Source: Candidatus Doudnabacteria bacterium RIFCSPHIGHO2_01_FULL_46_24 (GTDB lineage: Bacteria; Patescibacteriota; Doudnabacteria; UBA920; O2-02-FULL-48-8). Taken from it: a stretch of 64,000 bases of DNA. Positions 1 to 61,843 of this stretch are shown one piece after another. The position numbers and the translations under genes are program-made. The notes beneath the pieces were generated by a model that saw only the letters and a program-made list of their open reading frames with translations, made no database searches and was not told where the DNA came from. Numbering within the stretch: the first letter of the stretch is position 1; the number at the start of each line of letters is the position of its first letter. The stretch lies in NCBI GenBank assembly GCA_001777575.1, contig MFEL01000010.1, forward strand, positions 20,661 to 84,660, in the 5' to 3' direction.

Positions 1-2328
1 ACTTACCAAAAATTGCTGCTGGACAATTCTTATCTGGATTTTGGCGACTTGATTAATTTCACTTTGAAACTTTTTCGCACTCGTCCGAAAATTCTCAAAC
101 GGTACCAAGCCCAGTATAAATACATTTTGGTGGATGAATTCCAAGATACGGATTTTTCACAATACGAAATGGTCAAGCTGCTGGCCATGCCGCAAAATAA
201 CCTCACGGTGGTTGGTGATGACGACCAGTCCATCTACAAATTCCGCGGCGCATCCGTCTCCAATATTTTGCAATTCAAAAGTGATTTCAAAAAAGCTCAA
301 GAAGTCACTCTGACTGAAAATTACCGCTCCAGCCAAAATATTTTGGATCTGGCTTATAAATTCATCCAGCAAAACAACCCTGAGCGCCTGGAGAGCAAGC
401 TTAAAATCGACAAAAAATTGAAGAGTGATAAAAAAGACCAAGGCCTCATTGAGGTTCTGCATGGCTCCAACATCCACGAAGAAGTGCGCTTGGTGGCTGA
501 TAAAATAAACGAGCTCACAGAGGCCGGTCTAAATTTAAGCGACTTTGCCATTCTGGTCCGAGCCAACGATTCGGCTGAGCCGTTTATCTCCGAATTGAGC
601 CGGCGCGGGGTTGGGTATATTTTTGTCGCCAACAGAGGGCTTTACAGAAAACCTTTTATCCTTGATCTCTTGGCATACTTGCGCCTTCTGGACAACCACC
701 ACGAAAGTGAAAACCTGTTTCGGGTGCTTGCAATGGAGAATTTCAAAATCTCGGATGCGGATTTGATGAACATTACCAGAACCGCGAAAATCAAGGCTCT
801 GTCGGTTTTTCATGTCCTGAGCAATGCCCGCAGTCTGATTAGGCTTGATGCCCCATCGGCCAAAAAAATCGACACGGTTGTGGGATTGATCGAGAAACAC
901 ACAGCGATGGCCCGCAGCACGCCTATATCTGAACTTATTGTTCGGATTCTTGATGATTTGGGTTTAATTAAGGAACTAAGCGCGGACAACGCCGCTGTTT
1001 CTGAGAAACGCAGCATGCTCGAGCAATTCTATAAGAAGGTTATGAGTTTTGAGGATGAGAGCAATGACAAAACCCTCAGAGGCTTTCTTGAAAATTTAAG
1101 GCTGGAGCTGGAAGCTGGGGATTTGGGAGAGCTTTCATACAATCCCGATTTGGGCCCGGAGGCAATGCGCCTCATGACAATCCATTCAGCCAAAGGGCTG
1201 GAGTTCAAATGCGTGTTTGTAGTCAACCTGGTTGACCAAAGATTTCCTTCCAGGGAGCGCCGGGATCAGATCGAAATCCCGTCGGAGTTAGTCAAGGAAA
1301 TCCTGCCGGAAGGGGATGTGCACCTGATGGAAGAGCGGCGGTTGTTTTACGTCGCGTGCACGCGAGCGAAGCAAAATCTCTATCTGACTTGGGCCGACGA
1401 CTACGGCGGCACCACGAACAAAAAGCCTTCCCGATTTTTGATTGAGCTTGATTTTGCCAAGCTCCCCGAAAAGTCCAAACCCGCCGGCGAGGTAATTTTC
1501 AAAAACCCGCCTGCGATCACAGATCACGGATCAAAGATCACGAATCAACTATTCATCCCCGATACTTTTTCGTTTTCTCAAATCAACACTTTTCGCAACT
1601 GTCCTTTGGAATACAAGCTGCGCTATATCTACCAATTGCCCCTTCCAGGTTCTTCGCACTTGTCACTGGGCGATACGGTCCATAAGACGCTCTATAAATT
1701 TTTAAGCCACTATGACCGCCTGAATAAACAAAAACAAGCTGATCTGTTCGGGGCGAAGCAGACCGCATCCGAAGTCCCAGGTTTGGATCTTTTAAAAAAG
1801 TTCTACGAAGAGTCCTGGGTGGACGATTGGTACCCGGACGCCATTGAAAAAAACCACGCCCGCAAGCTCGGGTGGGAGATGTTAGAAACGTTTCACAAAA
1901 GATTTTCGGAGCAACCCTCAACCATCAAATTTCTTGAGCAAAAATTCAAACTGAAACTGGGCAATTTCAAATTCACGGGCAAAATTGACCGCGCGGATCT
2001 CAACAGTGACAACTCGATTGACATCATTGACTACAAAACCGGCAAAATCAAGGAAAAATTGACGGCCGAGGACAAGGATCAACTGTTCATCTACCAATGG
2101 GCGGCGCAGGAGCAATTCAAGGAAAAAGTCCGCACCCTTAAATATTGGTACCTAAAAAGCCTCGGCGACAGTCCGAAATTCCTGGGCAGCAGCCAAGACA
2201 TCGAAAAAGTTAAGGTTAAACTCCTTCAGACCATCGAGCAAATAATCGACGCCATCAAATCAAATTCCTTCCCCAAACTCGACCAAAAAATTTCCCACGA
2301 CTGCAAATACCGTGATTTTATGGTATAA
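1..2328 (+). CDS. UvrD/PcrA/AddA-like ATP-dependent DNA helicase fused to a C-terminal PD-(D/E)XK nuclease domain; 5' end lies outside the window
   Basis: Helicase motifs VVGDDDQSIYKFRGA, TENYRSSQNIL and MTIHSAKGLEFKCVFV; C-terminal nuclease-like block IDYKTGK...DCKYRDF; ORF runs to the window edge. Confidence 0.8.
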   Translation, partial: TYQKLLLDNSYLDFGDLINFTLKLFRTRPKILKRYQAQYKYILVDEFQDTDFSQYEMVKLLAMPQNNLTVVGDDDQSIYKFRGASVSNILQFKSDFKKAQEVTLTENYRSSQNILDLAYKFIQQNNPERLESKLKIDKKLKSDKKDQGLIEVLHGSNIHEEVRLVADKINELTEAGLNLSDFAILVRANDSAEPFISELSRRGVGYIFVANRGLYRKPFILDLLAYLRLLDNHHESENLFRVLAMENFKISDADLMNITRTAKIKALSVFHVLSNARSLIRLDAPSAKKIDTVVGLIEKHTAMARSTPISELIVRILDDLGLIKELSADNAAVSEKRSMLEQFYKKVMSFEDESNDKTLRGFLENLRLELEAGDLGELSYNPDLGPEAMRLMTIHSAKGLEFKCVFVVNLVDQRFPSRERRDQIEIPSELVKEILPEGDVHLMEERRLFYVACTRAKQNLYLTWADDYGGTTNKKPSRFLIELDFAKLPEKSKPAGEVIFKNPPAITDHGSKITNQLFIPDTFSFSQINTFRNCPLEYKLRYIYQLPLPGSSHLSLGDTVHKTLYKFLSHYDRLNKQKQADLFGAKQTASEVPGLDLLKKFYEESWVDDWYPDAIEKNHARKLGWEMLETFHKRFSEQPSTIKFLEQKFKLKLGNFKFTGKIDRADLNSDNSIDIIDYKTGKIKEKLTAEDKDQLFIYQWAAQEQFKEKVRTLKYWYLKSLGDSPKFLGSSQDIEKVKVKLLQTIEQIIDAIKSNSFPKLDQKISHDCKYRDFMV

Positions 2329-2710
2329 TGGAAGCGTGAACACTCTGGCTGCAAAATCTTATTTGTTAATCGCTGACATTGTCTTCGGGGCAAGCCTGGC
2401 CTCAATGATTTTCCTGCTTATGGCAGTCAGTCCCGAATCAGGATTCGTGGTACTTCTGTCTTTTTATTCAATTCTGTTTCTGCTCGTGTTTACGACAGCG
2501 ATGCTGGCTGGATATTATATCCGGCAGTCTCTCGGGAACAGGGAGTTCGCTCTTCAAGACCTTCACGTCTCGGCTCGGCAGGGCTTGTGGCTCGCAATCC
2601 TCGTCACAATATCATTCGTTTTACTTGCACTCGAAATGTTCTCAACCATGCCTGTTGCCCTGCTCACGCTTGCCTTGGTTTTCTTGGAATCATATTTAAC
2701 GCTCAAGTAA
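2312..2710 (+). CDS. small hydrophobic membrane protein, hypothetical
   Basis: Four predicted TM stretches; overlaps the helicase stop by 17 nt; no recognisable motif. Confidence 0.35.
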   Translation: MILWYNGSVNTLAAKSYLLIADIVFGASLASMIFLLMAVSPESGFVVLLSFYSILFLLVFTTAMLAGYYIRQSLGNREFALQDLHVSARQGLWLAILVTISFVLLALEMFSTMPVALLTLALVFLESYLTLK

Positions 2711-3825
2711 TGTCAATGCCAGAAACACAAAGTCAATCCGATGAAGTAAATTATGTTGTCATGCCTCCCTTAGGCAGGAAGCCTGTAGAAACGTCTCAGC
2801 ATCCGCAAGCGCAGTCTCCGGAAGTTGGCGCGCCGTTTGTTCGCAAGTGGTTTTACATTGCCGGAGCCGTGCTTTTGGTGTTGCTTTTGGCACTCCTGTG
2901 GTACTTCAGATTCGCGAATCAGGATGAAACCGATCAACCTATTGCGACGCAAACCCGCCTGCCGAGGGTTTGGTTAAACCAGCATTTTGGATCAGAGGTT
3001 TGCGCTAACGATAAAATTTGTGGCGACACTGCTGATCCTGACGCGGATGGGCTCAGCAACTTCAATGAATTCAAGGAAGGGACCGACCCCAAAAATTCCG
3101 ACACGGATATGGATGGCTTAGCTGACAGCGACGAGCTTACTGTCTTCAAGACAGACCCAAACCTCAAATACACGGACCGGCGCGAGATCGCCGCAACCAA
3201 TGATTACAATGACGCTGTATCGATTGCGAACGGTTATGACCCGCTGACTCCTGGATTTAGGATGACGAAAAGCCGCTTGGCGCAAATAGAAGCGGACACC
3301 AAGCAACATCAATTTCATGAGCCGACAATTTCGACTTTACAAACGCTTAGGCCAGAAGCGCAACCTGCGCCCACCCCAACCTCATTGGCGCCGGTAACCG
3401 CCAGTCGTCAGAACTGCGGCGTGGTCGAAGGCCTTCACCTCCTGGCGGAAAGGGATAAGCTTACAGCAGTCGAAAGTAATTCCCTTAACTGCATTGATCA
3501 GGCCATGATCAGCTGCTTGCCTGCAAAGATCTCTGTGCATAATACACTTGAGTCAACCAAAGAGCTTGGTAACAGCGAGTTTGAAGTTATCGGTAAAGTC
3601 GGCGGTGACTGCAGAATGAAAAATGATCCGCAAGCGCCCACGCAGCTTTCACCTAAACGAACTTGCGGGGTGCCTCTAGCTTTTATTGCAAATCTTGACA
3701 AGCAAGCGAAAGCTCAACCCACAGCCGGACCGGGCATTGTTTTCTTTGCCGTTTCCATTGGCATGAGCTTTGGTGAATTGACTGATTCCGCCACAGGTGA
3801 AAAAATAACCTTTTCTTGCGCATGA
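2710..3825 (+). CDS. membrane-anchored secreted protein with thrombospondin-type-3-like Ca-binding repeats
   Basis: ATG at 2710 (MSMPETQ); TM segment WFYIAGAVLLVLLLALLWYF; repeats DTADPDADGLSNFNEFKEGTDPKNSDTDMDGLADSDE. Confidence 0.5.
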   Translation: MSMPETQSQSDEVNYVVMPPLGRKPVETSQHPQAQSPEVGAPFVRKWFYIAGAVLLVLLLALLWYFRFANQDETDQPIATQTRLPRVWLNQHFGSEVCANDKICGDTADPDADGLSNFNEFKEGTDPKNSDTDMDGLADSDELTVFKTDPNLKYTDRREIAATNDYNDAVSIANGYDPLTPGFRMTKSRLAQIEADTKQHQFHEPTISTLQTLRPEAQPAPTPTSLAPVTASRQNCGVVEGLHLLAERDKLTAVESNSLNCIDQAMISCLPAKISVHNTLESTKELGNSEFEVIGKVGGDCRMKNDPQAPTQLSPKRTCGVPLAFIANLDKQAKAQPTAGPGIVFFAVSIGMSFGELTDSATGEKITFSCA

Positions 3826-4175
3826 GTCTGTTAAGTTGGTTGCATAAATCGAAATTTCCAGGAATAATCGCGGCAAGGGTTACTAAAATTGAAAAACATC
3901 CGAATGCCGATCGGTTGCGAGTCGTCGAATTGACCGACGGTGAAAGAACGATAGCGCCCGTGGTCTGCGGAGCTTTTAATTTTGAAGTTGGCGCCAAGGT
4001 AGCCTTAGCCCTCCCTGGCGCTAAAATTTTGCGTAATATCCATTCCGCAGCGCACGAGCCGTTTGTCTTGCAGAAAGCCACCATTCGCGGCATCGAAAGC
4101 CAGGGGATGATTTGCTCGGCGTTTGAACTGGGCTTATCAGATTCCCCGGCAGGGAATTATGATTTTGGAAGATGA
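3816..4175 (+). CDS. stand-alone tRNA-binding domain protein (PheT B1 / CsaA / Myf-like)
   Basis: KHPNADRLRVVELTDGERTIAPVVCGAFNFEVGAKVALALPGA...IRGIESQGMICSAFELGL matches the tRNA_bind fold of the PheT N-terminus. Confidence 0.7.
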   Translation: MRMSLLSWLHKSKFPGIIAARVTKIEKHPNADRLRVVELTDGERTIAPVVCGAFNFEVGAKVALALPGAKILRNIHSAAHEPFVLQKATIRGIESQGMICSAFELGLSDSPAGNYDFGR

Positions 4176-4226
4176 TGTAAAGATTGGTAAAAGGTTCTCA
4201 AGCGACATGGTAAATTTTCAGTAAAT

Positions 4227-4252
4227 GCTTCACTACTGCAGTGCAGTGAAGC
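4227..4252 (+). promoter_or_regulatory. hairpin GCTTCACT-N10-AGTGAAGC containing the CAGTGCAGTGAAG motif, 27 nt upstream of pheS
   Basis: Perfect 8-bp inverted repeat; the same 13-mer recurs at 16376-16396 upstream of folA. Confidence 0.4.
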
Positions 4253-4278
4253 ATATACATAGCGGAAGTTAATAGTCT

Positions 4279-5409
4279 ATGGCAACAATAAATGTTGATG
4301 CAACCGAAGAAGAAAGGCTCAAGGAACAACTTGAAAAGCGCGCAGACTTTGAAGCGCAGCGAATCAGGCGGTATTTAAGCATGCCGGATTTATCAAGAAC
4401 CGAGGGAAGTCCGATTCAAGAAATTGTCAAGCGCGCAAGCCAGGTCAAAAGCCTGCAGGATTTCGACGTAATTCAAGTGCCGGAAATCGTGCCGGCGCAT
4501 ATCTTGTTTGACCTGTTCAACATGCCGCCGGGACATCCCGCGCGAAGCAAATCGGACACTTACTATGTTGACGAAGAACATGTGCTAAGAACCCATGACA
4601 CGGTTTTCTGGTATTACTATCTGAATGACCCGGCAATCAAACAAAGAATCGCGAATAAAGAAACACTTGGAACTATTTGTTACGGCAAAGTCTACCGCAA
4701 GGATGAGATTGACAGCAGGCACATGAATGTCTTTCACCAATTTGGCGCCTGGCTAATCGCGCCCGATGACAAGCAAATTTTCACTCCCGATGATCTCAAG
4801 CGAGCGCTGGCCGAGGTTGGCACGAGCGTTTTTGGCTCCACCAATTTTCGTTTTTATGACCACAACTTCCCCTATACGGATCCGAGCTTTGAAATGGAAG
4901 CGGAAATTAAAGGACAATGGATGGAAATGGTCGGCTCGGGAATGGTCAGAAAGACCGTGCTTAAAAATTTGGGCTTGGAGGGATATAACGGTTGGGCGTT
5001 CGGCTTCGGCCTGGAAAGGCTGGCGATTGCCAGCATGGATTTGCCGGACATCCGCCTGCTGTGGTCCCAGGACCCGCGCGTGACCAAGCAGCTTAAGCTT
5101 GGCCAAAAATTCGTGGAAGTCAGCAAATACCCGCCGATCACGCGCGACATCTCTTTCATCGTGGATAAAAATTTTGTGCCCAACAATTACTTCGACTTAA
5201 TCCGCGACATCGGCGGCGATCTGGTGGAGCAGGTCGAGCTTTTGGATAAATTTGAAAACGAAGCTAAATTCCACAAAGACAAAATCAGCTACACCTATCG
5301 AGTGGTTTACAGAAGCCCTGAGCGAACCCTTAAAACCGAAGAAGTTGAACCTCTGCAAGCCAAGCTTTATGACGAAACCAAAAAGCAGTTTAACGCAGAG
5401 TTAAGATAA
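4279..5409 (+). CDS. pheS: phenylalanyl-tRNA synthetase alpha-type catalytic subunit fused to a C-terminal FDX-ACB anticodon-binding domain (mitochondrial/monomeric PheRS-like architecture)
   Basis: Class II motif 2 YRKDEIDSRHMNVFHQFG and motif 3 GWAFGFGLERLAIASMDLPDIRLLW; C-terminal ~95 aa (SKYPPITRDISFIVDKN...YRSPERTLKTEEVEPL) resembles the PheT C-terminal FDX-ACB domain. Confidence 0.85.
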   Translation: MATINVDATEEERLKEQLEKRADFEAQRIRRYLSMPDLSRTEGSPIQEIVKRASQVKSLQDFDVIQVPEIVPAHILFDLFNMPPGHPARSKSDTYYVDEEHVLRTHDTVFWYYYLNDPAIKQRIANKETLGTICYGKVYRKDEIDSRHMNVFHQFGAWLIAPDDKQIFTPDDLKRALAEVGTSVFGSTNFRFYDHNFPYTDPSFEMEAEIKGQWMEMVGSGMVRKTVLKNLGLEGYNGWAFGFGLERLAIASMDLPDIRLLWSQDPRVTKQLKLGQKFVEVSKYPPITRDISFIVDKNFVPNNYFDLIRDIGGDLVEQVELLDKFENEAKFHKDKISYTYRVVYRSPERTLKTEEVEPLQAKLYDETKKQFNAELR

Positions 5410-5452
5410 TTGTTTCTGTGGATAACTTGACTACAAAGATCACCTTCGTAAT

Positions 5453-6838
5453 ATGGAAACAGAGCGCAATGTAATAAAAAAAATCTCCTCGGAGGGGGAG
5501 GATTGGGTTAACAGACGCGAATCTGCCAGAGAAGATGAACCGGAACATAAAAGGCAGGATATATTTGGCGCCAACTTTTTGCATTGGTGGAACATTGCGC
5601 ATAAAACAGGCGAGGATTGGTCTAAAATGACCGTTGGTCGTCTTGCGGATCATATCAACAAAACAGCTGACCAAACATGGAAACGGAATTTTAAGCGATT
5701 AGAAGAAGAGATGGTCGCGGGTGCAAAAACGGATCCCTGGTCTTTTCAGCAGTTTTTCGCAAATTATCTGATGGATAGAGTGCCCGATCTTGGGCGATTA
5801 AGTAAGCGCCTCGATTTAAGCATGAAACAGCCAAGAGCGAACCAGGATCTTATCCTGTTGGCGGCTGTGTTTGAGGGAGAAAGAGGAGCTAAAGCCACGG
5901 AACTGGGGATTAGTTTGACTGCGGAATATCAGAATGGCAATAAGATTCTCCCGGCAAAACTCGTGGCTTCAATGATTGATTATCATAGTCAGCATGTGTT
6001 GGAAAGCGAGCGCCAATTTATGGAAATGATCCCGGAATACTTGGACAAGATAAAAACGCTATTACTTGCCGCTTCTAATTCGGGAGAGATTCCGATAAAG
6101 ACAGATACGATTTTAGAACGCCTGGGGGCTTTACGTTTTGCGGTTGTGGACGGCCTGACTGCGAAACTCCGGGACTTTTCCGGCGACTTTAAAGACCACA
6201 CGCATACGATTAGAATCTCGTCTGAAGCCCGGCCCGAGCACGTTGGCATGATTATGTCCCATGAAATTATCCATGCGCTGGCTGGGCAACTGGAATATTC
6301 CAGCGTTTCGAAGGTGTTTGAAGATAATCCTGAACTCTTTGTTCTAGTCGAGCGTCATGAGTTATTAAAAGGCGGCTTGCACTTTAGTAAAGACGTTGGA
6401 GAAAAACAATCGGATTTGCCTTCTCTACGCTTGCGTTGGTTAAACGAAGCATTGACGGAACAAGCGGCAATCGATTTGGTCAAGGGAACGGAATACGTAG
6501 GCTTTGACACTTATGAGCTTGAAAGAAAACTTCTAGATAAACTGGTCGCTCTGGGTATATCAAAATCGTTGCTTTATGAGGCTTATTTTGAAAATTATGC
6601 GGCTGACTCTACCGGCGGACACCGCCTTCCCAAAACGCGGGAGTTATTTGAAACAGTCAATCGTTTGCTTGGCCGCGGCTTTTTGGTTAATCTGGATATT
6701 TATATAAGATCCAATCGAGACGGCGTAAAATTAGCATTGCAGAAATGGGAAGACCTAGGTGCTGAATTTCCGTCATTTATTAACGATTTCGGCGCAGGTA
6801 AAATTAAAGAATTAAGGGATAGTTCGGAATTAAGGTAA
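5453..6838 (+). CDS. hypothetical protein with HExxH...NEAxxE gluzincin-like motif (putative zinc metallopeptidase)
   Basis: MSHEIIHAL, then about 60 aa later WLNEALTEQAA (thermolysin-like NEAxSD pattern); no signal peptide; the start may lie further downstream (next candidate ATG about 5627). Confidence 0.4.
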   Translation: METERNVIKKISSEGEDWVNRRESAREDEPEHKRQDIFGANFLHWWNIAHKTGEDWSKMTVGRLADHINKTADQTWKRNFKRLEEEMVAGAKTDPWSFQQFFANYLMDRVPDLGRLSKRLDLSMKQPRANQDLILLAAVFEGERGAKATELGISLTAEYQNGNKILPAKLVASMIDYHSQHVLESERQFMEMIPEYLDKIKTLLLAASNSGEIPIKTDTILERLGALRFAVVDGLTAKLRDFSGDFKDHTHTIRISSEARPEHVGMIMSHEIIHALAGQLEYSSVSKVFEDNPELFVLVERHELLKGGLHFSKDVGEKQSDLPSLRLRWLNEALTEQAAIDLVKGTEYVGFDTYELERKLLDKLVALGISKSLLYEAYFENYAADSTGGHRLPKTRELFETVNRLLGRGFLVNLDIYIRSNRDGVKLALQKWEDLGAEFPSFINDFGAGKIKELRDSSELR

Positions 6839-7336: not shown

Positions 7337-9294
<1,958 letters not shown>

Positions 9295-20286: not shown

Positions 20287-21918
20287 ATGCTTAAGAATAA
20301 GCGAAGCACTAAATACATCTTTGTTTCCGGCGGCGTCATTTCCGGTCTTGGTAAAGGCATCACCGCGGCATCCATTGCCGCTATTTTAAAAAGCAAAGGC
20401 TTCAAAGTTTCCCCTGTGAAAGTTGACATGTACCTGAATTTCGATGCCGGCACCATCCGCCCGCAGGAGCACGGGGAAGTTTTTGTCACGGACGATGGGG
20501 TAGAGACCGACCAAGATTTGGGCCACTATGAGCGTTTTTTGGACACCGACCTTTCCAAAGTCAACTACATTACCACTGGACAAGTTTATTCCGAAGTTCT
20601 GCGCCGCGAGCGCGCCTTTGAATACGACGGTGAGGATGTGGAAGCCATCCCGCACATCACAGACGAAATCATCCGCCGGTTCAAGCTCGCCGGCAAAAAC
20701 GCCGATTTTGTCATTATTGAGCTGGGCGGCACGGTCGGCGAGTATCAAAACGCGATTTTTTTCGAGGCCTCCCGATTGATGAAATTGCGAAACCCCAATG
20801 ACATCTTGCAGGTACACGTCGCGTATCTGCCAATACCCGGAAATTTAGGCGAGATGAAATCCAAACCAGTCCAGCAGTCAGTCCGGCTGCTAAACTCCAT
20901 GGGCATTGAGCCGGATTTTATTGTGGCCCGCGCTTCCTACCCGGTGGACGACCGACGCAAAGAGCGGATAGCGCTTTTTTGCAATGTCAAAAAAGAGGAT
21001 GTCATTTCCAATCCTGATGTGCCGTCCATTTACGAAGTGCCGCTAATTCTGCAACAGCAGAAGTTAGGAGAGAAAATTCTGGCCAAACTGGGCTTGTCGC
21101 CGGGCAAAAAAGACCTTTCCCCCTGGAAGAGACTAGCCAGGGTCTTCAAAACCGTTCGCAAAGAAGTCAGAATCGCAGTGGTCGGTAAATATTTTGCCAC
21201 CGGCGATTATCATTTGTCAGACGTATACGTCTCCATTATCGAAGCCCTGAAGGCCGCGTCGTGGGCGAACAAGGTCAAGCCCAAGCTAGTTTGGTTTGAT
21301 TCGGAAAAATTGGAAAAAACCGGCGCCGAAGTCCTTAAGAGTTTTGATGGTATTGTCATTACCCCCGGATTCGGAAAAAGGGGAGTGGAAGGGCTCATCC
21401 AAGCCATCACCTATGCCCGCACTAAAAAAATTCCGTATTTAGGGCTGTGCTACGGCATGCAAATGGCCACGATTGAATTCGCCAGAAACGTTTTGGGGCT
21501 CAAAGGCGCCCACACCACCGAGGTAGACCCAAAAACGCCGCATCCGATAATCCACATTATGCCAGACCAGGAAAAGAAACTTTTGAAAAAAGATTACGGC
21601 GCCTCTATGCGCTTAGGAGCCTGGCCGTGCAACCTTAGGGAGGGCACGCTAGCTTATAAAGCTTACGGCGAGAAAAAAATCCTGGAGCGCCACCGCCACC
21701 GCTATGAATTTAACAACAAGTACCGCAAACAATTCGAAGCTAAAGGCTTCATCTTCTCCGGCACCACGCCTGACGGCCTGCTGATTGAGATTATAGAACT
21801 CAAAGATCACCCCTTCTTCGTCGGCACCCAATTCCACCCTGAATTCAAATCCCGCCCGTTAAATCCCGGCCCCTTGTTCAAAGAATTCATCAAAGCCGCG
21901 GTTAAAAATAAAAAATAA
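20287..21918 (+). CDS. pyrG: CTP synthase
   Basis: YIFVSGGVISGLGKGITAASIA; GATase LGLCYGMQ; HPEF. Confidence 0.95.
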   Translation: MLKNKRSTKYIFVSGGVISGLGKGITAASIAAILKSKGFKVSPVKVDMYLNFDAGTIRPQEHGEVFVTDDGVETDQDLGHYERFLDTDLSKVNYITTGQVYSEVLRRERAFEYDGEDVEAIPHITDEIIRRFKLAGKNADFVIIELGGTVGEYQNAIFFEASRLMKLRNPNDILQVHVAYLPIPGNLGEMKSKPVQQSVRLLNSMGIEPDFIVARASYPVDDRRKERIALFCNVKKEDVISNPDVPSIYEVPLILQQQKLGEKILAKLGLSPGKKDLSPWKRLARVFKTVRKEVRIAVVGKYFATGDYHLSDVYVSIIEALKAASWANKVKPKLVWFDSEKLEKTGAEVLKSFDGIVITPGFGKRGVEGLIQAITYARTKKIPYLGLCYGMQMATIEFARNVLGLKGAHTTEVDPKTPHPIIHIMPDQEKKLLKKDYGASMRLGAWPCNLREGTLAYKAYGEKKILERHRHRYEFNNKYRKQFEAKGFIFSGTTPDGLLIEIIELKDHPFFVGTQFHPEFKSRPLNPGPLFKEFIKAAVKNKK

Positions 21919-21942
21919 ACGGTTGGGCGCAGTCCTTAATGG

Positions 21943-21986
21943 CTTCTATTCTAAAGGCTCAACCGCGGTTGAGCCTTTAGTGTTTT
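21943..21986 (+). terminator. rho-independent terminator after pyrG
   Basis: AAAGGCTCAACC-gcg-GGTTGAGCCTTT followed by agtgTTTTTg. Confidence 0.8.
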
Positions 21987-22112
21987 TGCATCAAAAACTA
22001 GACTTAAAATCAAAGATTATACTAATATAGGCTCTACAAGGAGGCGCTATGACGCAAGATGAGATCAAGAATCGGAAAGCGGAGCTCGACCTTCAGCGGG
22101 CTATAGCAAGCG

Positions 22113-22277
22113 ATGAACAAGAGGCAAGTCGAGCGAATTATCAGTAAACTTCAATCCGGGTGCAAGCACCCGAACGCGACTAGGGTCAGCGGCAACGACT
22201 GCAGCACCGAAACCTGCCTTGACTGTGGGCGTGTTCGTACCTGGAAACTCGATGGGCTAGCCATAATGATAAGCTAG
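22113..22277 (+). CDS. small Cys-rich ORF (54 aa, zinc-ribbon-like); it overlaps a 32-aa ORF (22049-22147) that has a strong SD
   Basis: MNKRQVERIISKLQSGCKHPNATRVSGNDCSTETCLDCGRVRTW...; the alternative 32-aa ORF MTQDEIKNRKAELDLQRAIASDEQEASRANYQ is preceded by AAGGAGG. Confidence 0.25.
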   Translation: MNKRQVERIISKLQSGCKHPNATRVSGNDCSTETCLDCGRVRTWKLDGLAIMIS

Positions 22278-22295
22278 ATTCCAGTCTGCGTCCTC

Positions 22296-22336
22296 ACCCC
22301 TGCAAACTCTGGCCTTGCAGGATTTTTATTTATCAA
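22296..22336 (+). terminator. rho-independent terminator
   Basis: CCTGCAA-actctggcc-TTGCAGG followed by aTTTTTaTTTaT. Confidence 0.7.
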
Positions 22337-22425
22337 GCAAATAATACCATGTTACTTAGCGTGGTAGTAGATGTAAAAAAAATAAAAAAGCCGCGGGTTG
22401 CGACTTGACTGGTTCGAGTAGGAAC

Positions 22426-22752
22426 TTAGCGTGTAGCCAAGTCCAAAATATGCTTCAACACCCTCCTTCTCCGTTCTCCGGCCTGGTGCAGAAGCAAATG
22501 AGTCTCATCAGCCTTCAGCTTCCGAAGTACAATCTCAACTTGCTGAGGAGAGCCCTGCAGGCTGTAGTTGTTGTTCTTCCGTAAAAGCTGAACTCCATTG
22601 AAAAGCATAGCCAGCTTCGGGTTGCAGACCGGGTCGCGAAATCTCGCGCGATTGAGCGTTCTGAGCTCCGACTTGCTTCCAACGATCGCAACTGCTTGCT
22701 GCACGCTGATTGGATGGCGAACTTCCGCAGCTAAGACATCGGGCGCTTTCAC
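22426..22752 (-). CDS. hypothetical protein with a C-terminal Rx4H motif (possible HEPN-like)
   Basis: GTG start preceded by AAGGGGG; RRRRVLKH near the C-terminus; its own TATACT -10 after the rpmA terminator. Confidence 0.35.
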   Translation of the reverse strand: MKAPDVLAAEVRHPISVQQAVAIVGSKSELRTLNRARFRDPVCNPKLAMLFNGVQLLRKNNNYSLQGSPQQVEIVLRKLKADETHLLLHQAGERRRRVLKHILDLATR

Positions 22753-22777
22753 GACACCCCCTTGGAGTTTGCGCTCA

Positions 22778-22812
22778 GTATATCATAAAAAAACCGCCCT
22801 AGTTCTTGGGCG
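22778..22812 (-). terminator. rho-independent terminator overlapping the rpmA stop
   Basis: Minus-strand CCGCCC-aagaacta-GGGCGG followed by TTTTTTT. Confidence 0.6.
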
Positions 22813-23083
22813 GTTCAATATGCACGAATTTTCGCTTATGCAGCTCACCGTCAAAGCCGCGGACTTTTTTGCTGGTGAATTTGACCGCGCCAGCAGCCAC
22901 GGCATAGAGACTGTCATCATTGCCGCGGCGAACATTTTTGCCCGGATGCCATTTGGTGCCGCGCTGTTTGATGATAATATTGCCGATTTTGGCTATCTGA
23001 CCGCCAAAAAGCTTGACACCCAATCTTTTGGATTGCGAATCACGCCCCAGCGCTGTACTGCCCCCGGCTTTTTTATGAGCCAT
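22799..23083 (-). CDS. rpmA: 50S ribosomal protein L27
   Basis: [29 protein letters not shown]...[20 protein letters not shown]. Confidence 0.95.
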
Positions 23084-25998: not shown

Positions 25999-26000
25999 AA

Positions 26001-26031
26001 AAAGGGGACAGCCATAGACTGTCCCGACTGC
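26001..26031 (-). terminator. terminator for the minus-strand gene at 26048-26902 (hairpin plus T-run on the minus strand)
   Basis: GGGACAG-ccataga-CTGTCCC with AAAAAAA upstream on the plus strand (a T-run on the minus strand). Confidence 0.55.
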
Positions 26032-26047
26032 GGCGATCGGTCCGTCG

Positions 26048-26902
26048 CTAGTCCAACTTCAACTTGCCGACCGCCTTGCGCCACTTCCTGAGCAAGCCGT
26101 CGAGCCTCCTATTCTCCGCCCGAAGGCGCTTGTTTTCCTCGAGAACCTCGAGCGTAGCCGTTGCGATCAGCTCGATGTTCTCAGCCAGGAATACGGCCGA
26201 GTCCTTCTGCGCCGCTTCCTGCTTCAGCACGCGCTTCCGCTGGCGTACCGACTTCCGCGTCGTCTTTTTGGCAGGCTTGGCCGTGACCACGCCCGCTGCC
26301 TGGCGGGCCTTGCGGATCGCTTGCGCCAAGCCGCCGAGCGTGGCGTCCTTGTAGCCAGTCTCATGTACCTTGCCAAGGATTGCCTTAGCAGAGGCCTGAC
26401 AACTCAGGGCGGCATTGTCCAGCGTGGCTGCAAACTTCCACAACTGCTGCAAGCCAAGCTTGGTGTACTTATCTTTGCCATGCTTGGTAGCACTGGCTGT
26501 TGCCGGGGTCATACGCACCTCCTTCGGAATTGCCGCCACCAGCCTGGCTGGCAGAACGGCGGTTGTGATTGGCACTGTTGCCGGAGCCGGCTTGATCGGC
26601 CTCCGGTAGGCCAGAATCAGGTTCTTGATCTGACCAATTTCCATCAGCTGGACCGAGAACGCGATCCCTTGCCGCTTCGCCATCTTCTTCACCCGTTCTA
26701 CGATAGGATGGGAAAGATACTTGGCAAAGTACACCTGAAACACCGAACCCGGAATATCACTCTTGCGTTCCCCATCCTGGTCGCTCCAGAAGATTACCTT
26801 CGGATCGCGCCAAAGCTCGGCCCAGTCCCTAGGCAGCCCCCCAACGACGAGTATATGTCCGCGTCGCACTCTGATATCACCTCCTTCAAACGTGCCAGTC
26901 AC
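26048..26902 (-). CDS. DUF2325-like domain protein with a C-terminal basic region plus leucine-zipper-like coiled coil (high GC)
   Basis: HILVVGG...DIPGSVFQVYFAKYLSHPIVERVKKMAKRQGIAF resembles DUF2325; C-terminus KKTTRKSVRQRKRVLKQEAAQK followed by LEENKRLRAENRRLDGLLRK; GC about 60 percent against a background of about 47 percent. Confidence 0.5.
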   Translation of the reverse strand: MTGTFEGGDIRVRRGHILVVGGLPRDWAELWRDPKVIFWSDQDGERKSDIPGSVFQVYFAKYLSHPIVERVKKMAKRQGIAFSVQLMEIGQIKNLILAYRRPIKPAPATVPITTAVLPARLVAAIPKEVRMTPATASATKHGKDKYTKLGLQQLWKFAATLDNAALSCQASAKAILGKVHETGYKDATLGGLAQAIRKARQAAGVVTAKPAKKTTRKSVRQRKRVLKQEAAQKDSAVFLAENIELIATATLEVLEENKRLRAENRRLDGLLRKWRKAVGKLKLD

Positions 26903-27060
26903 GAACTAATAAACCTACCATAACCGAGTAATTTTGTCCAGGCGCCACGGATGTGCAGGATTGACTTTGTCGGAGATTTTTGTTATACTTATCCGTTCTT
27001 TCGTATATGAGTCCCAAGGAGGACTTTTTGCGCGCCATACCGGCGCGCGTGGAGGCAACG

Positions 27061-28137
27061 ATGAGACGCTTGCTCGTAGCGGTCGCGCTCGTGGCATTTC
27101 TGCTCGGTATCGTGACTGGAGCAAAAGCTGGCGGAGTGGAACGGACCATCTTGTCGCTGGACCTCAACAGCGACGGTCGGGAGGATCTGCTCGTATACGA
27201 CCCGACGACCGGCGCGTTCACACGAGTGTTCCAGTATCCCGGCTGGCCATACGCCGCGCCGACCGAATACTGGCTGCCAGGGATGAATGTGGTCATGGGA
27301 TTTCTGGACGAGGATGCCTCGCCAGACGTGATCTTCTACGACCCGGCAACCGGCCTGGTCTGGCAGGCTCTCAACTACGCTGGGACGCTATATGTTACCA
27401 CCGTCACGTCCTGGCCCAGGGGCATGCTGGCGTACCCGTTTGACCACAACGGCGACGGGGCTACGGATTTCTTCCTGTACAACCGGGTAACAGGGGAGTG
27501 GTCACTCCAGCTCAACACCTGGAACGGCTACTTCACGGAAGTCAACGGCCGGTGGTCTGAGGGCTGGGAGATACGAGTGGGTAACTTCTCCGCCTTCGAT
27601 CATAACCAGGACCTGCTCCTGTACAACCGGGAGACAGGCGTCTGGTACAAGGCCCTGTCTGACGGCTTCGGCGGGTTCTATTACTCACAGCCTGGCCGCT
27701 GGTCGCCGGGATGGAACGTGTCCATCGGGCGATTCAATATCGACGCGGCCGATGACGTGTTCCTCTACAACCCTGTAACCGGAGTCTGGTTTCGGGTCTT
27801 CTCGGATGGCTGGACCGGCTTCTACTGGTACGAGAGGGGGGGATGGTCGGCGGGGTGGAGTGTTCTCATCGCGAGGCTGGAAAAACGCGGCCTCGATGAC
27901 CTGATTCTCTACCATGCTGGCACTGGCGCTGGGTTCGCCTGCGTAACGCAAGCCTACGCCGGCTTCAGGTACCATCGGCTGACGCTGTACAATAGTGCCG
28001 TGCCGATGGTGCAGGACTTCAGCGGGGATCGGCTGTCCGATCTGCTGCTGTGGATTGACCTGACCAACCCGGTCGGGTTCAGTCGGTACAAGTCCGTGCT
28101 AAGAGGAGGCAACTTCGACCACCTTGAGTGGTGGTAG
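27061..28137 (+). CDS. secreted FG-GAP/VCBS-like repeat protein, predicted 7-bladed beta-propeller (high GC)
   Basis: Signal peptide MRRLLVAVALVAFLLGIVTGAKA; 7 repeats of about 50 aa with D-x-[DN]-x-D-G-x-x-D-L/F plus the hydrophobic YNxxTGxW pattern. Confidence 0.6.
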   Translation: MRRLLVAVALVAFLLGIVTGAKAGGVERTILSLDLNSDGREDLLVYDPTTGAFTRVFQYPGWPYAAPTEYWLPGMNVVMGFLDEDASPDVIFYDPATGLVWQALNYAGTLYVTTVTSWPRGMLAYPFDHNGDGATDFFLYNRVTGEWSLQLNTWNGYFTEVNGRWSEGWEIRVGNFSAFDHNQDLLLYNRETGVWYKALSDGFGGFYYSQPGRWSPGWNVSIGRFNIDAADDVFLYNPVTGVWFRVFSDGWTGFYWYERGGWSAGWSVLIARLEKRGLDDLILYHAGTGAGFACVTQAYAGFRYHRLTLYNSAVPMVQDFSGDRLSDLLLWIDLTNPVGFSRYKSVLRGGNFDHLEWW

Positions 28138-28166
28138 CTACGCCGAGCCGACTCGACGCAGCAAGG

Positions 28167-28212
28167 GTCGCGCGGCAGGGTTCAGCCCCTGACCGCGCGA
28201 CCCTTCTTTTTT
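28167..28212 (+). terminator. rho-independent terminator
   Basis: GGGTCGCGCGG-17nt-CCGCGCGACCC followed by TTCTTTTTTT. Confidence 0.85.
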
Positions 28213-28399: not shown

Positions 28400-28930
28400 T
28401 TATATGGAATTAAATTTAAAAGGGTTTGGTCTAGATGATTTATATTCCAGCATTTGGTTTCTTATCTTATGCAACTCTTTTTCAATATCTGGCTCTAAAT
28501 GATTAGAAATGAATCCTCGCACACCTTTTTTGACATTAATATTTTTCAAACGTGCGCCTGAGATTAACTCTACTCCCCTACTCCAAAGCTTAAAATCCGA
28601 CGCTTTCTTCCCACGTAAGGGATGTTTATTAAATAATGGAATAAATATTTCTCTCAACAGCTTTGGATTCTGTACAGAATACCTTGCTAACTTGCCACCG
28701 TTAACGAAAGTCACTGATCCGCATCCAAGCGTATCTCTAATTTTATGCAAAAGATTGGCATCATCGGAGCGTAAAACTATTGCGAACTCTGCATTCCAGT
28801 AAAAATATTCTCTCGTCTTCCCATTTCTTATCTTTCTATCCAATCTATACTTCAGAGCAAAACAACCCTCACCTTCAACAAATCCGGCTAAGTAATCGCC
28901 AGGCAATTTATCAATAGTTTCAGGCTGCAT
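28400..28930 (-). CDS. LAGLIDADG-family homing endonuclease (single-motif, homodimer type), free-standing
   Basis: DYLAGFVEGEGCFAL motif; 176 aa; AT-rich (about 33 percent GC); starts 9 nt after the M23 peptidase stop. Confidence 0.75.
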   Translation of the reverse strand: MQPETIDKLPGDYLAGFVEGEGCFALKYRLDRKIRNGKTREYFYWNAEFAIVLRSDDANLLHKIRDTLGCGSVTFVNGGKLARYSVQNPKLLREIFIPLFNKHPLRGKKASDFKLWSRGVELISGARLKNINVKKGVRGFISNHLEPDIEKELHKIRNQMLEYKSSRPNPFKFNSI

Positions 28931-42785: not shown

Positions 42786-44162
42786 ATGTGCGCCATATTT
42801 GGCATCACAGGAACCAATACAGCGGCTAACAGCGCATTCTTCGGTTTGCACGCCATGCAACACCGAGGACAGGAATCCGCAGGCATCGCCAGTCACGACG
42901 GCGAACTGATCCACAAGGTCGCCGGCATGGGGTATGTCGATGACGTTTTCCCCGATGAAAAAGTCCTCGGCACCCTGACAGGCAAAACCGCCATCGGCCA
43001 TACCCGCTACTCGACTACCGGCACCAGCCGGCTCAAGAACGCCCAGCCGTTCGAAATCAAATGCAAGCACGGGCGGTTCGCAATCGCCCACAACGGAAAC
43101 CTGACGAACACCGACGCGCTGCGAGCAGATCTGGAAGGGGAAGGAGCTATCTTCCAGACCGAATCCGACACTGAGGTCATTCTTCACCTCTATGCCCGCG
43201 CAAACGCCACCAACTCCCAGGAAGCCATCATCCGGGCTTTGACCCAGGTCGAAGGCTCATACGCGCTGGTGATGTTGACTCCTGACGGACTGGTCGCAGC
43301 TCGCGACCCGAGGGGTTTCAAGCCCCTGGTCATCGGCAGGCTCGATGATTCATGGATCGTGGCTTCCGAAACCTGCGCCCTCGATATCCTGGAGGCGAAA
43401 TACGTGCGCGATGTTGAGCGCGGAGAAATCGTGTTCTTCACCGCAAACGGCATGCCCAAGAGCATCCGCCCCTTCGGCAAGCTTCCACCACAAGCCGCCT
43501 GCATCTTTGAGCACGTTTACTTCGCACGGCCCGACAGCTACATTTTCGGCAACGCCAGCGTTTCGGTCCACCGACAGCGGTTCGGATATTTGCTGGCAAA
43601 ACAGTCTCCGGCGGATGCCGACATCGTGGCTGCAGTGCCGGATTCGGGAGTCCATGCGGCATTAGGCTTCGCCGAAGGCTCAGGCCTTCCCTACAAAGTC
43701 GCGCTGACCCGCAACCACTATGTCGGCAGGACATTCATCAACCCCTCCGGGGACGGCCGCAGGATCGGGGTGCGGATGAAGCTCAATCCCATTCGCAGCG
43801 TGGTCGAAGGCAAGCGCATCGTGCTTGTGGATGACTCCATCGTCCGCGGCATTACCAGCCGCAAGATCGTTCGTCTGGTCAAAACGGCCGGAGCGAAGGA
43901 AGTCCATGTGCGGATCAGCTGCCCGCCAACGATCGCGCCGTGCCACTACGGCATCGACACCCCTGATTTCAACGAACTGATTGCGTCGAGCAACAGCGTT
44001 GAGGAAATCTGCCGCTTCATCGAAGCCGACAGCTTGGCGTATCTTAAGCTCGATGCAACTCTGGCGGCAGTGGATGGTACGGAAGGAGGTTTCTGCACCG
44101 CTTGCTATACCGGCGACTACCCTGTTCTGCCCCACGGCGCCATTCCGCTTCGACCCGCTTAG
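42786..44162 (+). CDS. purF: amidophosphoribosyltransferase (class II glutamine amidotransferase + PRTase), high GC
   Basis: N-terminal MCAIFGI (Ntn Cys), VDDSIVRGITS PRTase motif, C-terminal Cys cluster; GC about 58 percent. Confidence 0.85.
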   Translation: MCAIFGITGTNTAANSAFFGLHAMQHRGQESAGIASHDGELIHKVAGMGYVDDVFPDEKVLGTLTGKTAIGHTRYSTTGTSRLKNAQPFEIKCKHGRFAIAHNGNLTNTDALRADLEGEGAIFQTESDTEVILHLYARANATNSQEAIIRALTQVEGSYALVMLTPDGLVAARDPRGFKPLVIGRLDDSWIVASETCALDILEAKYVRDVERGEIVFFTANGMPKSIRPFGKLPPQAACIFEHVYFARPDSYIFGNASVSVHRQRFGYLLAKQSPADADIVAAVPDSGVHAALGFAEGSGLPYKVALTRNHYVGRTFINPSGDGRRIGVRMKLNPIRSVVEGKRIVLVDDSIVRGITSRKIVRLVKTAGAKEVHVRISCPPTIAPCHYGIDTPDFNELIASSNSVEEICRFIEADSLAYLKLDATLAAVDGTEGGFCTACYTGDYPVLPHGAIPLRPA

Positions 44163-45380: not shown

Positions 45381-45454
45381 TCCGGGATCGTCTAACGGTA
45401 GGACGGCGGACTCTGAATCCGCTAATCTTGGTTCGAATCCAAGTCCCGGAGCCA
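45381..45454 (+). tRNA. tRNA-Gln (anticodon CUG)
   Basis: Acceptor TCCGGGA/TCCCGGA, D-arm TCGTCTAACGGTAGGACG, anticodon stem GCGGA-ctCTGaa-TCCGC, T-arm TTGGTTCGAATCCAAG, CCA encoded. Confidence 0.88.
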
Positions 45455-51763: not shown

Positions 51764-52825
51764 TCACACTACCGGCTGCGGATTGTGCTCGATGCGCCAC
51801 AGCAACTGCAGCCGCAAAAATGCATCGGCACGCACTTGCTGCCAGCACCAGCCTTCAAACTCTGGGTCCCGAGGAAGAGCCGAGAACAGCAGAAACCCAG
51901 CACCCTCATCTGCCCAAAGGAATTGATCCGGGCCCATCGGCGACCCGATGCCAACGCCGTACTCTGCACGCCATTGTCGGACGAATTGGAGGATCCGCTC
52001 CATGTCATCGTCCCATTCCAGCGGACGCAGCTCAGTCATAGCCACCTCTCTGGTTCTGATTACAGCTCGAACTTCGTCCAGCTCCTCGCTGGTGTTGACT
52101 CCGAGCGCTTCGCTTGCGTCTTCCAGAGGCACTTCCAGGATCTTCGCACCCTGGTCGTGCGCGATCAACAGCAGCTTGGGCAAGTGCAGCTCCGGCGGAT
52201 GGCCGTCGCCTTTGTCTACAGGTGGGATGTGCGACAAGTTTTGAGCCAGCCACTTCCGCTTAAAGACATACAGCGATGGATTTACAGTCGCCGCTCCCGA
52301 AAGCATCCGGCCGGCAAGCTCTGATGGTTCAAACGCTGCCAAAATGGCGCCGCGCTCATCCCGGGCGATACGACCGTACCGCTCGGTACTGTGTCCCGGC
52401 CGCAAACGCAGCGTGACCATGCTGATTGCAGCATCGCCATCATTTAAGTGTGCCTTTGCCAATCTCCGCAGGGTGTCCGGCCTCCACAAAGGCATGTCGC
52501 CAAATGTGACGAGCACGTCTGCAGCATCGCCGAGCTCTGGCAGGGCACAACGTACGGCGTCAGCAGCCCCATATCTTCCCGCCTGCTCAACGATTCGCAA
52601 GCCGCGGCATTCAAAGGGTTCCAGCGCTTTCCGAATCTGCGCACCGTAACCATTGTTGCCAACAACAACGGCAAGCTGATCCTCAATGCCTGCTTCCAGC
52701 ACGATACGGATGATCCGCTGAATCATCAGTTCGTCGCCGGTCGTTTCCAGTACTTTCGGGCTGGAACGAACAGGGCAGACTGACCCCCAGCCGGCAGCTG
52801 GAATAACACACGCAAGCTTTCCCAC
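51764..52825 (-). CDS. second sugar-phosphate nucleotidyltransferase paralog with an extra about 100-aa C-terminal domain (high GC)
   Basis: VIPAAGWGS; shared EALGVNT/EAFGINT block with the neighbouring paralog; GC about 60 percent. Confidence 0.7.
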   Translation of the reverse strand: MGKLACVIPAAGWGSVCPVRSSPKVLETTGDELMIQRIIRIVLEAGIEDQLAVVVGNNGYGAQIRKALEPFECRGLRIVEQAGRYGAADAVRCALPELGDAADVLVTFGDMPLWRPDTLRRLAKAHLNDGDAAISMVTLRLRPGHSTERYGRIARDERGAILAAFEPSELAGRMLSGAATVNPSLYVFKRKWLAQNLSHIPPVDKGDGHPPELHLPKLLLIAHDQGAKILEVPLEDASEALGVNTSEELDEVRAVIRTREVAMTELRPLEWDDDMERILQFVRQWRAEYGVGIGSPMGPDQFLWADEGAGFLLFSALPRDPEFEGWCWQQVRADAFLRLQLLWRIEHNPQPVV

Positions 52826-60682: not shown

Positions 60683-61843
60683 TCATAATTTAATTAAGGA
60701 ATTAAGAAATGCTCTGCTTGCAGCTCTGTCAATTTTGTTGTTTGGCGAAAAAATCAATCTGCCGATTGTCTCACCCTCAAATTGCGTTACCCCGCGAGAG
60801 TTTCTGCCCGACCAATGTTTGAGCAAAATCGTTGACTTTAATAAATTAACCTGAAACATTGAAATTAAAACCTTGTTCACTATTTTATTCGTCTCAATTC
60901 CGATAAAATAAAACATGAACACCGATTTGTCGGTTGCCAGAAATTCGAGCAGCTTATCAATGTTGTATCCCTTAGGATTTGAGCTAAGCACCATTATCTT
61001 TGTTTTGACATCTGTTGCCGTGTCATATTTATCGAATGTGCAAATATAATCGGCAAGTCTATTTTTTGTCCTGAATCCCGGAATAACATTACTACTATCG
61101 TGTAGTGCCTTAACTAAACTTTCTCTCAATTTTTCATCCTCACCTGCAATCAGATATTCAATAATTCTCCCCCTGATATTCACGTTTTCAATAAAGCCAG
61201 CAATCAGAATTTCGGTTTTATACTTCTCAACCTTGGCGTCTAACTCCGCCTTCAATTGCGAATATTCTTTTGATCCCACAAAATCAGCCGCTCGTTCGGG
61301 TGCGTTTTGTATCACCTTTTTTGCGGCTGATGAAACTTCAAACTTTTTACCCGAAGGACTGATGTTTGTGGTCGCTTCTACAAGTCGAGCAAGGTTGCCT
61401 TCAAAGCCCAATTCGGCATGAATACTAAATAGCTTCTCAAAATTCTCTGGTGAATTTGTTAAATCCCCGAACTTTTTTGCAATATCCGAACCGTTAATAC
61501 TTCCACGGATATTATCAATCCGCAGTAATTGAGAACTATGACTTATTTTTTGCAAAAAAGTTGTATTTGCTAAATAAAGGACATTCTTTAACGGCGTTAT
61601 TAAGCAAACAATAAACGGCAAGTCATCATATTTTTGTAGATTTGAAAGTGAAATTACGGTATTTGAAAAACTCAACGAGGAAGAATAGCTGAAACGAACA
61701 GAAAAATGCTTTGAATAATAGACCGATTTATCTTTAGTCAGCTTGAATTTTTTCTGCACTTCACTAATCAAGTTTGCTTTATTGGCAACCCCGCCTTTCG
61801 ATTTTATGAAGTTGATAAATAAAACTATATCTTCGTGCATCAT
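60683..61843 (-). CDS. hypothetical protein, candidate type II restriction endonuclease (AT-rich)
   Basis: Immediately downstream of, and 4-nt overlapping with, the DNA MTase gene; no conserved motif; GC about 33 percent. Confidence 0.35.
   Translation of the reverse strand: MMHEDIVLFINFIKSKGGVANKANLISEVQKKFKLTKDKSVYYSKHFSVRFSYSSSLSFSNTVISLSNLQKYDDLPFIVCLITPLKNVLYLANTTFLQKISHSSQLLRIDNIRGSINGSDIAKKFGDLTNSPENFEKLFSIHAELGFEGNLARLVEATTNISPSGKKFEVSSAAKKVIQNAPERAADFVGSKEYSQLKAELDAKVEKYKTEILIAGFIENVNIRGRIIEYLIAGEDEKLRESLVKALHDSSNVIPGFRTKNRLADYICTFDKYDTATDVKTKIMVLSSNPKGYNIDKLLEFLATDKSVFMFYFIGIETNKIVNKVLISMFQVNLLKSTILLKHWSGRNSRGVTQFEGETIGRLIFSPNNKIDRAASRAFLNSLIKL

Follow-up and report, generated by a model that had tools for sequence, protein, structure and literature searches.

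Compositional genomic islands are recognised by a sharp break in guanine-plus-cytosine (GC) content, in GC at third codon positions (GC3) and in dinucleotide usage, by lineage-specific genes and by their place in a variable slot between conserved genes. These features are shared by a patch at positions 26030-28212 of the 64,000-nucleotide stretch of DNA analysed here (the window). The patch lies between a cysteine desulfurase gene and a LAGLIDADG/M23-peptidase gene pair and carries two divergent genes, one on the minus strand for a 273-residue protein and one on the plus strand for a secreted 358-residue protein with FG-GAP/VCBS-like repeats. It differs from such islands in being only 2.2 kb long, in having one gene with a positional homologue in a sister species and in carrying no mobility marks. 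Small compositional islands are common, as are unannotated protein families in bacteria of the candidate phyla radiation (CPR), and lineage-specific regulators are among their many unannotated genes. On balance, we regard it as probable that the patch is a genuine variable segment with two functionally unlinked genes whose histories probably differ, the FG-GAP gene having been imported and the other belonging to a CPR family. The locus is a clear-cut case of a small variable slot defined by its composition. It also yields a first account of an unannotated protein family whose modular layout is clear, and this account is its most useful product. It gives no evidence about a host organism, and it does not open a long-standing question.

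The two proteins can be compared with several described systems. The N-terminal domain of the 273-residue protein resembles DUF2325 (PF10087), an uncharacterised bacterial alpha/beta domain whose function is not known and for which the literature holds no functional data; the linker, helical bundle, basic patch and zipper that follow it lie outside the 94-position PF10087 model. The C-terminus recalls the eukaryotic basic leucine zipper (bZIP) transcription factors GCN4, C/EBP and Pap1, with a basic segment N-terminal to a zipper that has core Asn at 'a' positions and with one long helix (residues 222-283) in the AlphaFold2 (AF2) model. It differs from them, however, by about eight non-basic residues (QEAAQKDS) between the basic patch and the heptads, by the lack of the N-x7-R/K signature and of any Asn in the basic patch, and by two extra folded domains. 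A further likeness is to YabA, GpsB, ZapB and DivIC, which are short dimerising or tetramerising coiled coils on small globular modules; among the sequence matches of this C-terminus they are the best, though still weak. That similarity is not significant, the domain order is different, and the 273-residue protein has no YabA-type Zn-binding domain. The plus-strand protein resembles FG-GAP/VCBS propellers (PF01839, PF13517), such as integrin alpha N-termini and bacterial surface proteins, in its signal peptide and its seven tandem repeats, each of about 48 residues. It is, however, a minimal version, the propeller alone at 358 residues, whereas its relatives mostly reach 440-610 residues.

Composition and boundaries of the patch

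The GC content of the patch is 0.591, compared with 0.478 in the rest of the window, and is the highest among all 2183-bp windows (mean 0.482, standard deviation (sd) 0.031). The 1-kb bins 26001-27000 and 27001-28000 have values of 0.573 and 0.603, against a window average of about 0.48. In 200-bp bins both edges are sharp, GC rising from 0.46 to 0.60 at about 26000-26030 and falling from 0.64 to 0.42 at about 28200. Inside these limits it stays at 0.59-0.645, except for lower values of 0.505-0.545 where the minus-strand gene begins and in the divergent promoter region. The GC-rich island that an earlier note on this DNA had placed between the desulfurase and LAGLIDADG genes is confirmed by these values. 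The two genes are close to each other in GC content, with 0.588 for the minus-strand gene and 0.602 for the FG-GAP gene. Their GC3 is 0.72 (0.723, z 2.3) and 0.76-0.77 (z 2.8), respectively, while the 58 other open reading frames (ORFs) of the window have 0.55 ± 0.075. The codon-preference scores of both are low and not extreme, and in the minus-strand gene GC is also raised at codon positions 1 and 2 (0.52 vs 0.44, z 2.2).

Dinucleotide usage was compared by the composition-normalised distance, Karlin's delta*. The distance between the patch and host DNA is 0.155, compared with 0.053 ± 0.021 for 2.2-kb host windows, and is the most extreme in the window. The FG-GAP gene stands at 0.224 from host DNA (0.071 ± 0.022 for 1-kb host pieces), a deviation of about 7 sd, and the minus-strand gene is mildly atypical at 0.114, about 2 sd. 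The distance between the two genes is 0.19, above the 95th percentile of pairs of host pieces (0.149), and these differing signatures mean that a single co-transferred island is not shown. The earlier note had proposed codon-usage and tetranucleotide comparisons, which proved unequal: GC3 is raised in both genes, but the tetranucleotide z-score correlation does not single out the patch (0.32 vs a mean of 0.37) and is therefore uninformative at 2 kb.

The patch with both of its junctions is present at 99.93-100% identity in six contigs from six different assemblies, which rules out an assembly chimera. A hypothetical protein recorded for Candidatus Doudnabacteria bacterium RIFCSPHIGHO2_12_FULL matches the FG-GAP protein at 100% identity; in that organism the minus-strand protein is annotated as a 211-residue hypothetical protein. 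The source is Candidatus Doudnabacteria, a CPR lineage, and not a Saccharibacteria epibiont. Ordinary housekeeping genes flank the patch (L27, methyltransferase, cysteine desulfurase, M23 peptidase, GltX), and no Rfam family was found within or around it.

The slot that the patch occupies varies among related genomes. The sister genome Candidatus Doudnabacteria JACPFQ01 (L003) shares 72-84% identity with the window in the neighbouring proteins and 78% in the cysteine desulfurase. DNA synteny between the two ends at 26003/26004, exactly at the desulfurase stop codon and just before the terminator of the minus-strand gene. Directly after the desulfurase, in the same convergent orientation, L003 carries a 273-residue ORF. 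BLAST finds no relation between this ORF and the window protein, but it matches the profile of the family to which the window protein belongs (hhalign probability 96.6, E 5e-10; hmmsearch E 2e-10). Its gene has a GC content of 0.568, against 0.469-0.476 for the genome. Beyond it lies an unrelated GC-rich 129-residue ORF and no FG-GAP gene, and in a second related contig, DASPNG010000084.1 (L004), the slot holds yet another gene. The FG-GAP gene is missing from the equivalent position in both relatives, whereas the minus-strand gene has a positional homologue in L003. The segment downstream of the desulfurase differs in all three genomes (L003 9172-11050, L004 5047-5418, window 26004-28212). 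In L003 the family homologue and the convergent desulfurase gene share 20 bp at their 3' ends (9172-9191); the last residues of the homologue, IDFFICYIF, are encoded by the antisense of the desulfurase 3' end, so it may no longer have its original C-terminus and terminator.

The two proteins and their genes

The maximal ORF of the minus-strand gene (26048-26902) encodes 284 residues, the length assumed in the earlier note. That reading frame exists as described, but the likely start is the GTG at 26869, with AAGGAGGTGA upstream, which gives a gene at 26048-26869 and a protein of 273 residues, a length on which other gene callers agree. Residue numbers below follow the 284-residue ORF. A word-indexed protein search had left the protein an orphan, a status overturned by an exhaustive HMMER search, which at E ≤ 1e-3 returned 56 relatives, the best at 34% identity. 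With a single exception these are 221-404 residues long, and many align nearly over the full length. The protein and its relatives make up an undescribed family of proteins 250-300 residues long. PHROGs and NCBIfam gave no meaningful match, and phage and plasmid collections held none to the 273-residue protein.

The AF2 model built on the family alignment (predicted local distance difference test score, pLDDT, 78.8) contains three folded modules. The N-terminal alpha/beta domain (residues 12-100; 26603-26869) has a pLDDT mostly of 74-95, with strands at 16-20, 36-39 and 54-60 and helices at 65-78 and 89-100, and carries the family motifs ILIVG, FWxS, P..VE.V.FTRF.SH and TGEIK. No conserved catalytic residues were found in it. 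The earlier note had called this domain DUF2325-like. For the window protein itself the PF10087 match stays below the gathering cutoff (E 0.026, 15.1 bits vs 33.6) and covers residues 38-82 only, but 13 of 23 family members also match weakly, the best at E 1.3e-5. In a fold search of BFVD with the full-length model a viral DUF2325 protein ranks third (probability 0.94, E 0.07). The matches in PDB are weak and of a generic small alpha/beta kind (PTS IIB, BRCT, RecR Toprim and receiver domains, E ≥ 0.03), and neither PDB nor BFVD gave anything below E 0.03 for this model. The link to DUF2325 is weak but consistent.

The domain is followed by a Pro/Ala/Thr-rich disordered linker (residues 101-147; 26462-26602; pLDDT below 50 at 116-146), which varies in length and sequence across the family. 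The model and sequence conservation then delimit a three-helix bundle (residues 148-202; 26297-26461) with helices at 148-161, 168-181 and 189-202 and a pLDDT of 88-96. The bundle contains a near-invariant Gly183 within a pattern reminiscent of a helix-turn-helix (HTH) motif, made up of an Ala, Gly183, Thr-Thr and hydrophobic spacing, and a sub-alignment of this middle domain gave no HTH match in Pfam or PDB profiles. A basic patch, defined by its charge pattern, lies at residues 211-227 (AKKTTRKSVRQRKRVLK; 26222-26272), where the most basic 15-residue window has a net charge of +8. It is poorly conserved, and in relatives it ends in a conserved Asp-Ser.

The last module is a C-terminal helix at residues 222-283, which includes a coiled coil of the leucine-zipper type at residues 236-281 (26060-26197), delimited by its heptad register and the model. 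The residues at its a and d positions are A L I I T V N L N L L W V L, a hydrophobic repeat of at least four heptads in a confidently predicted helix. Asn257 and Asn264 occupy 'a' positions, and the motif EENxxLRxEN is conserved in the closest relatives. Two core Asn residues in a coiled coil are a hallmark of an in-register parallel dimer, and the modelled zipper would be expected to form such a dimer. The earlier note had compared the basic segment and heptad repeat with a bZIP module and had proposed structure prediction of this region. Both elements are present, and the predicted helix is long and confident over residues 240-280 (pLDDT 89-98), but the basic patch is of low confidence (pLDDT 54-64), lies apart from the heptads and lacks the bZIP signature. 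Pfam gave no bZIP match, and among PDB profiles Pap1 and C/EBP were matched at insignificant E values of 0.15-8. The resemblance to a bZIP module is loose and goes no further than a basic segment ahead of a zipper.

The four taxon-labelled members of the family are all from CPR bacteria (Zambryskibacteria, the Parcubacteria group and two Doudnabacteria). Other members are found in contigs of 34-39% GC beside genes for EF-Tu/S10/L3, S6/SSB, DnaX, HisRS and Ddl; in two loci DnaX is at most 4 kb away. In six other low-GC loci the family gene exceeds its flanks by 5-12 GC points, partly via codon positions 1 and 2. A distant member occurs in a phage-like contig of 60% GC together with an AAA ATPase (phrog_8638) and DUF2997. 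Three metagenomic loci have an RNase H-fold neighbour (L083 94-672, L085 3059-3637, L089 1789-2418), which is a divergent RNase_H_2/PolB-exonuclease-like protein in two of them and an RNase H1 with an N-terminal hybrid-binding domain in one; these neighbours may hint at a nucleic-acid-related role of the family. No FG-GAP neighbour was seen at any other family locus examined, and the pairing of the two genes is therefore not conserved.

The plus-strand gene has a maximal ORF at 26980-28137 (385 residues). Its likely start is the ATG at 27061, with GGAGG 5 nt upstream, giving a gene at 27061-28137 and a protein of 358 residues. The protein begins with the signal peptide MRRLLVAVALVAFLLGIVTGAKA and continues with seven tandem repeats of 47-48 residues, anchored at residues 42, 89, 136, 184, 232, 280 and 327, in agreement with the secreted seven-repeat protein of the earlier note. 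Loops of the D-x-N-x-D-G-x-x-D type are present in blades 1, 3 and 7. Blades 3-5 (27473-27790) are 77-83% identical in DNA with a 144-nt period, which suggests recent blade duplication or gene conversion. The Pfam scores of the protein itself are below threshold (FG-GAP_3, 16.9 vs 26.9 bits; FG-GAP, 14.7 vs 22.1 bits). Apart from the entry of its own population, homologues have E values of 7e-65 to 1e-34 and 32-38% identity. Most of them carry precomputed FG-GAP/FG-GAP_3 Pfam domains, some with an added GDSL-lipase or fibronectin-III domain, and the UniRef name of the plus-strand protein is 'VCBS repeat-containing protein'. A single-sequence AF2 model is strand-rich and unreliable (pLDDT 44.7); because of the repeats and the homology, a closed seven-bladed propeller is the likely fold.

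The only taxon-named homologue outside the own population is from Acidobacteria, and none is labelled CPR. The three homologue loci examined have 59-67% GC. Two of them are polysaccharide-biosynthesis clusters, one on a 2.4-Mb contig, and the third lies among other FG-GAP genes; one relative is found on contigs of up to 5.4 Mb. The plasmid collection held no match to the FG-GAP protein, and no homologue of either protein is labelled Actinobacteria.

The two gene starts are separated by a divergent intergenic region (26870-27060, GC about 0.51), which contains a sigma-70-like promoter for the plus-strand gene (26961-26989; TTGACT, a 17-nt spacer and an extended -10 TATACT). No operator-like inverted repeats were found in this region, and the fold of the 5' leader is not significant. 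Each gene ends in an intrinsic terminator, as the earlier note had indicated. On the minus strand it is a 9-bp stem with 6 G-C pairs and a 3-nt loop (26005-26025), and a T-run (CTTTTTTTAT) comes after it. On the plus strand it forms the right edge of the patch (28163-28212), with a 13-bp perfect G+C-rich stem (28163-28205) followed by T8; the 76-nt segment 28150-28225 that contains it has a folding energy of -39.7 kcal/mol (z -5.1).

Origin of the patch and possible roles of its proteins

The best reading of the FG-GAP gene is a plausible import from a GC-rich bacterium outside the CPR, and to this extent the acquisition from a GC-rich donor that the earlier note had put forward is upheld. It does not extend to the family gene, whose labelled members are all CPR and which lies in a variable slot; for these reasons the gene is not derived from an actinobacterial or other host. 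Best matches only within the same lineage had been named by the earlier note as an observation against import, and with CPR-only labelled relatives the import hypothesis fails for this gene at the superphylum level. Part of its GC excess would be a trait of the family, and the slot itself would be a hotspot of gene turnover. Several observations weigh against this account of two separate histories. There is no integrase, transposase or other mobility gene inside the patch, no direct or inverted repeats flank it, and the only tRNA gene of the window, at 45381, does not mark it. No donor of the FG-GAP gene can be named, since identities of about 35% are too low, and its dinucleotide distance could be exaggerated by its internal repeats together with the unusual residue composition of its product (11.5% Gly, 5.3% Trp, 6.1% Tyr). 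Family genes elsewhere have a smaller GC3 excess (z -0.5 to 1.7) than the window copy of the family gene (z 2.3). Against the family member P0017 the window protein reaches 87 bits, and it is not among the 20 best family matches of the L003 protein, so the two positional counterparts are not closest relatives. The slot has therefore either kept a fast-evolving gene or repeatedly received different family members, and the family gene may itself have been replaced by a xenologue. In addition, the similar GC3 of the two genes, their contiguity and their own terminators would also fit a single co-transfer.

Such a co-transfer would have brought both genes as one 2.2-kb cassette from one GC-rich donor, possibly a different CPR bacterium or else a phage or plasmid of the CPR, at about 60% GC, replacing the content downstream of the desulfurase. 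It is a possible origin, and we consider it doubtful. The near-equal GC and GC3 values, the divergent arrangement with a terminator at each outer end, the sharp edges and the end of L003 synteny exactly at the left edge all agree with it. The same is true of the closer similarity of the window protein to P0017-P0019 than to its positional counterpart in L003, and of the distant family member in the 60% GC phage-like contig. However, the dinucleotide distance between the genes exceeds the host range, the FG-GAP neighbour is seen at no other family locus, and phage and plasmid collections returned no match. Moreover, the slot of the sister species already holds a family member, and the landing of a homologue-bearing cassette at that very place would be a coincidence. 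A native origin of both genes, with the GC excess arising from amino-acid composition or local selection, is improbable in our judgement. It agrees with the family gene's raised GC at the first two codon positions, with family genes in L003 and elsewhere that exceed their hosts in GC and with codon-preference scores that are low without being extreme. It is opposed by GC3 values of 0.72-0.77 against a host mean of 0.55, by the most extreme dinucleotide distance in the window and by an FG-GAP gene that has no taxon-labelled CPR homologue and is missing from the L003 and L004 slot. The earlier note had also speculated that the donor was a GC-rich host organism, such as an actinobacterium under an epibiont lifestyle. 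The high GC and GC3 and the GC-rich loci of the examined FG-GAP relatives are in line with this, but it is extremely improbable and the speculation is not upheld. The organism belongs to Candidatus Doudnabacteria, which is not a known epibiont of Actinobacteria, and nothing identifies a host. Among the matches of the two proteins none is labelled Actinobacteria, the sole named FG-GAP relative being from Acidobacteria and the labelled relatives of the 273-residue protein all from the CPR, and at identities of about 35% no sampled genome can have been the source of a recent transfer.

The possible role of the 273-residue protein can be approached from its domain anatomy. The zipper with two core Asn residues would hold two copies of the protein in a parallel homodimer, and the two three-helix bundles and two basic patches brought together in this way may bind nucleic acid. 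The N-terminal domain would be a non-catalytic interaction or sensing module, and the whole protein a putative regulator or a replication- or nucleoid-associated factor. A DNA-binding role is weakened by the results of the HTH profile and fold searches (nothing below E 0.03) and of the search for operator-like repeats. A tentative alternative, to which we give a minor share of weight, is that the protein does not bind DNA and instead serves as a coiled-coil adaptor in the control of cell division or replication, like YabA, GpsB, ZapB or DivIC. In that case the zipper would drive oligomerisation and the N-terminal domain would bring in a partner. The weak Pfam matches of the C-terminus to YabA (in 4 members), ZapB and DivIC, the PDB matches to YabA and GpsB at E 0.04-0.3, and the RNase H-fold or 3'-5' exonuclease and DnaX genes near the family gene in other loci are consistent with an adaptor. 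All such matches are, however, below significance and typical of any coiled coil, and an adaptor would leave the basic patch and the three-helix bundle unexplained. An unlikely further extension of the nucleic-acid-binding view is that the family, as an undescribed, fast-turning-over and mainly or only CPR analogue of basic-zipper proteins in bacteria, perhaps creates or regulates a turnover hotspot with species-specific GC-rich cargo. The cargo would in that case be the FG-GAP gene here and the unrelated 129-residue ORF in L003.

The FG-GAP propeller is probably a cell-surface binding or adhesion module. CPR bacteria, whose genomes are tiny, presumably depend on other cells, and for this reason secreted adhesion-type propellers acquired from other phyla are candidates for a part in cell-cell contact.

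Neighbouring genes and other variable segments

A free-standing gene for a single-domain LAGLIDADG_1 endonuclease (28400-28930, minus strand) directly abuts the GC-rich patch and has a very low GC content of 0.365. A gap of 9 bp separates it from the M23 peptidase gene upstream of it, and its surroundings showed neither a group I intron nor any other Rfam element. The patch is not the sole GC-rich region of the window. A purF-like amidophosphoribosyltransferase gene (42786-44162, plus strand; GATase_6/7 and Pribosyltran domains) has a GC content of 0.591 and a GC3 of 0.71, lies in the second most GC-rich stretch and may be acquired too. A gene for a MobA-like NTP-transferase (51764-52825, minus strand) has a GC content of 0.587, which is also above the host mean. 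At the other extreme, a low-GC pair (0.36-0.38) on the minus strand at 60683-62850 consists of two genes with a 4-bp overlap, one for a 386-residue protein with no Pfam match and one for an N6/N4 DNA methylase; this pair is probably an acquired restriction-modification system.

The L004 contig is labelled Candidatus Binatia, yet it is collinear with the window over the CTP synthase, L27, methyltransferase and cysteine desulfurase genes (61% identity for the desulfurase) and has 44% GC; it is probably mis-binned. A second variable slot lies between the CTP synthase and L27 genes, where L003 has about 4.7 kb (1260-5996) and the window about 0.9 kb (21918-22826). The L003 segment includes genes for a bactofilin/FapA-like protein of 376 residues and a DUF6818-like protein of 248 residues.

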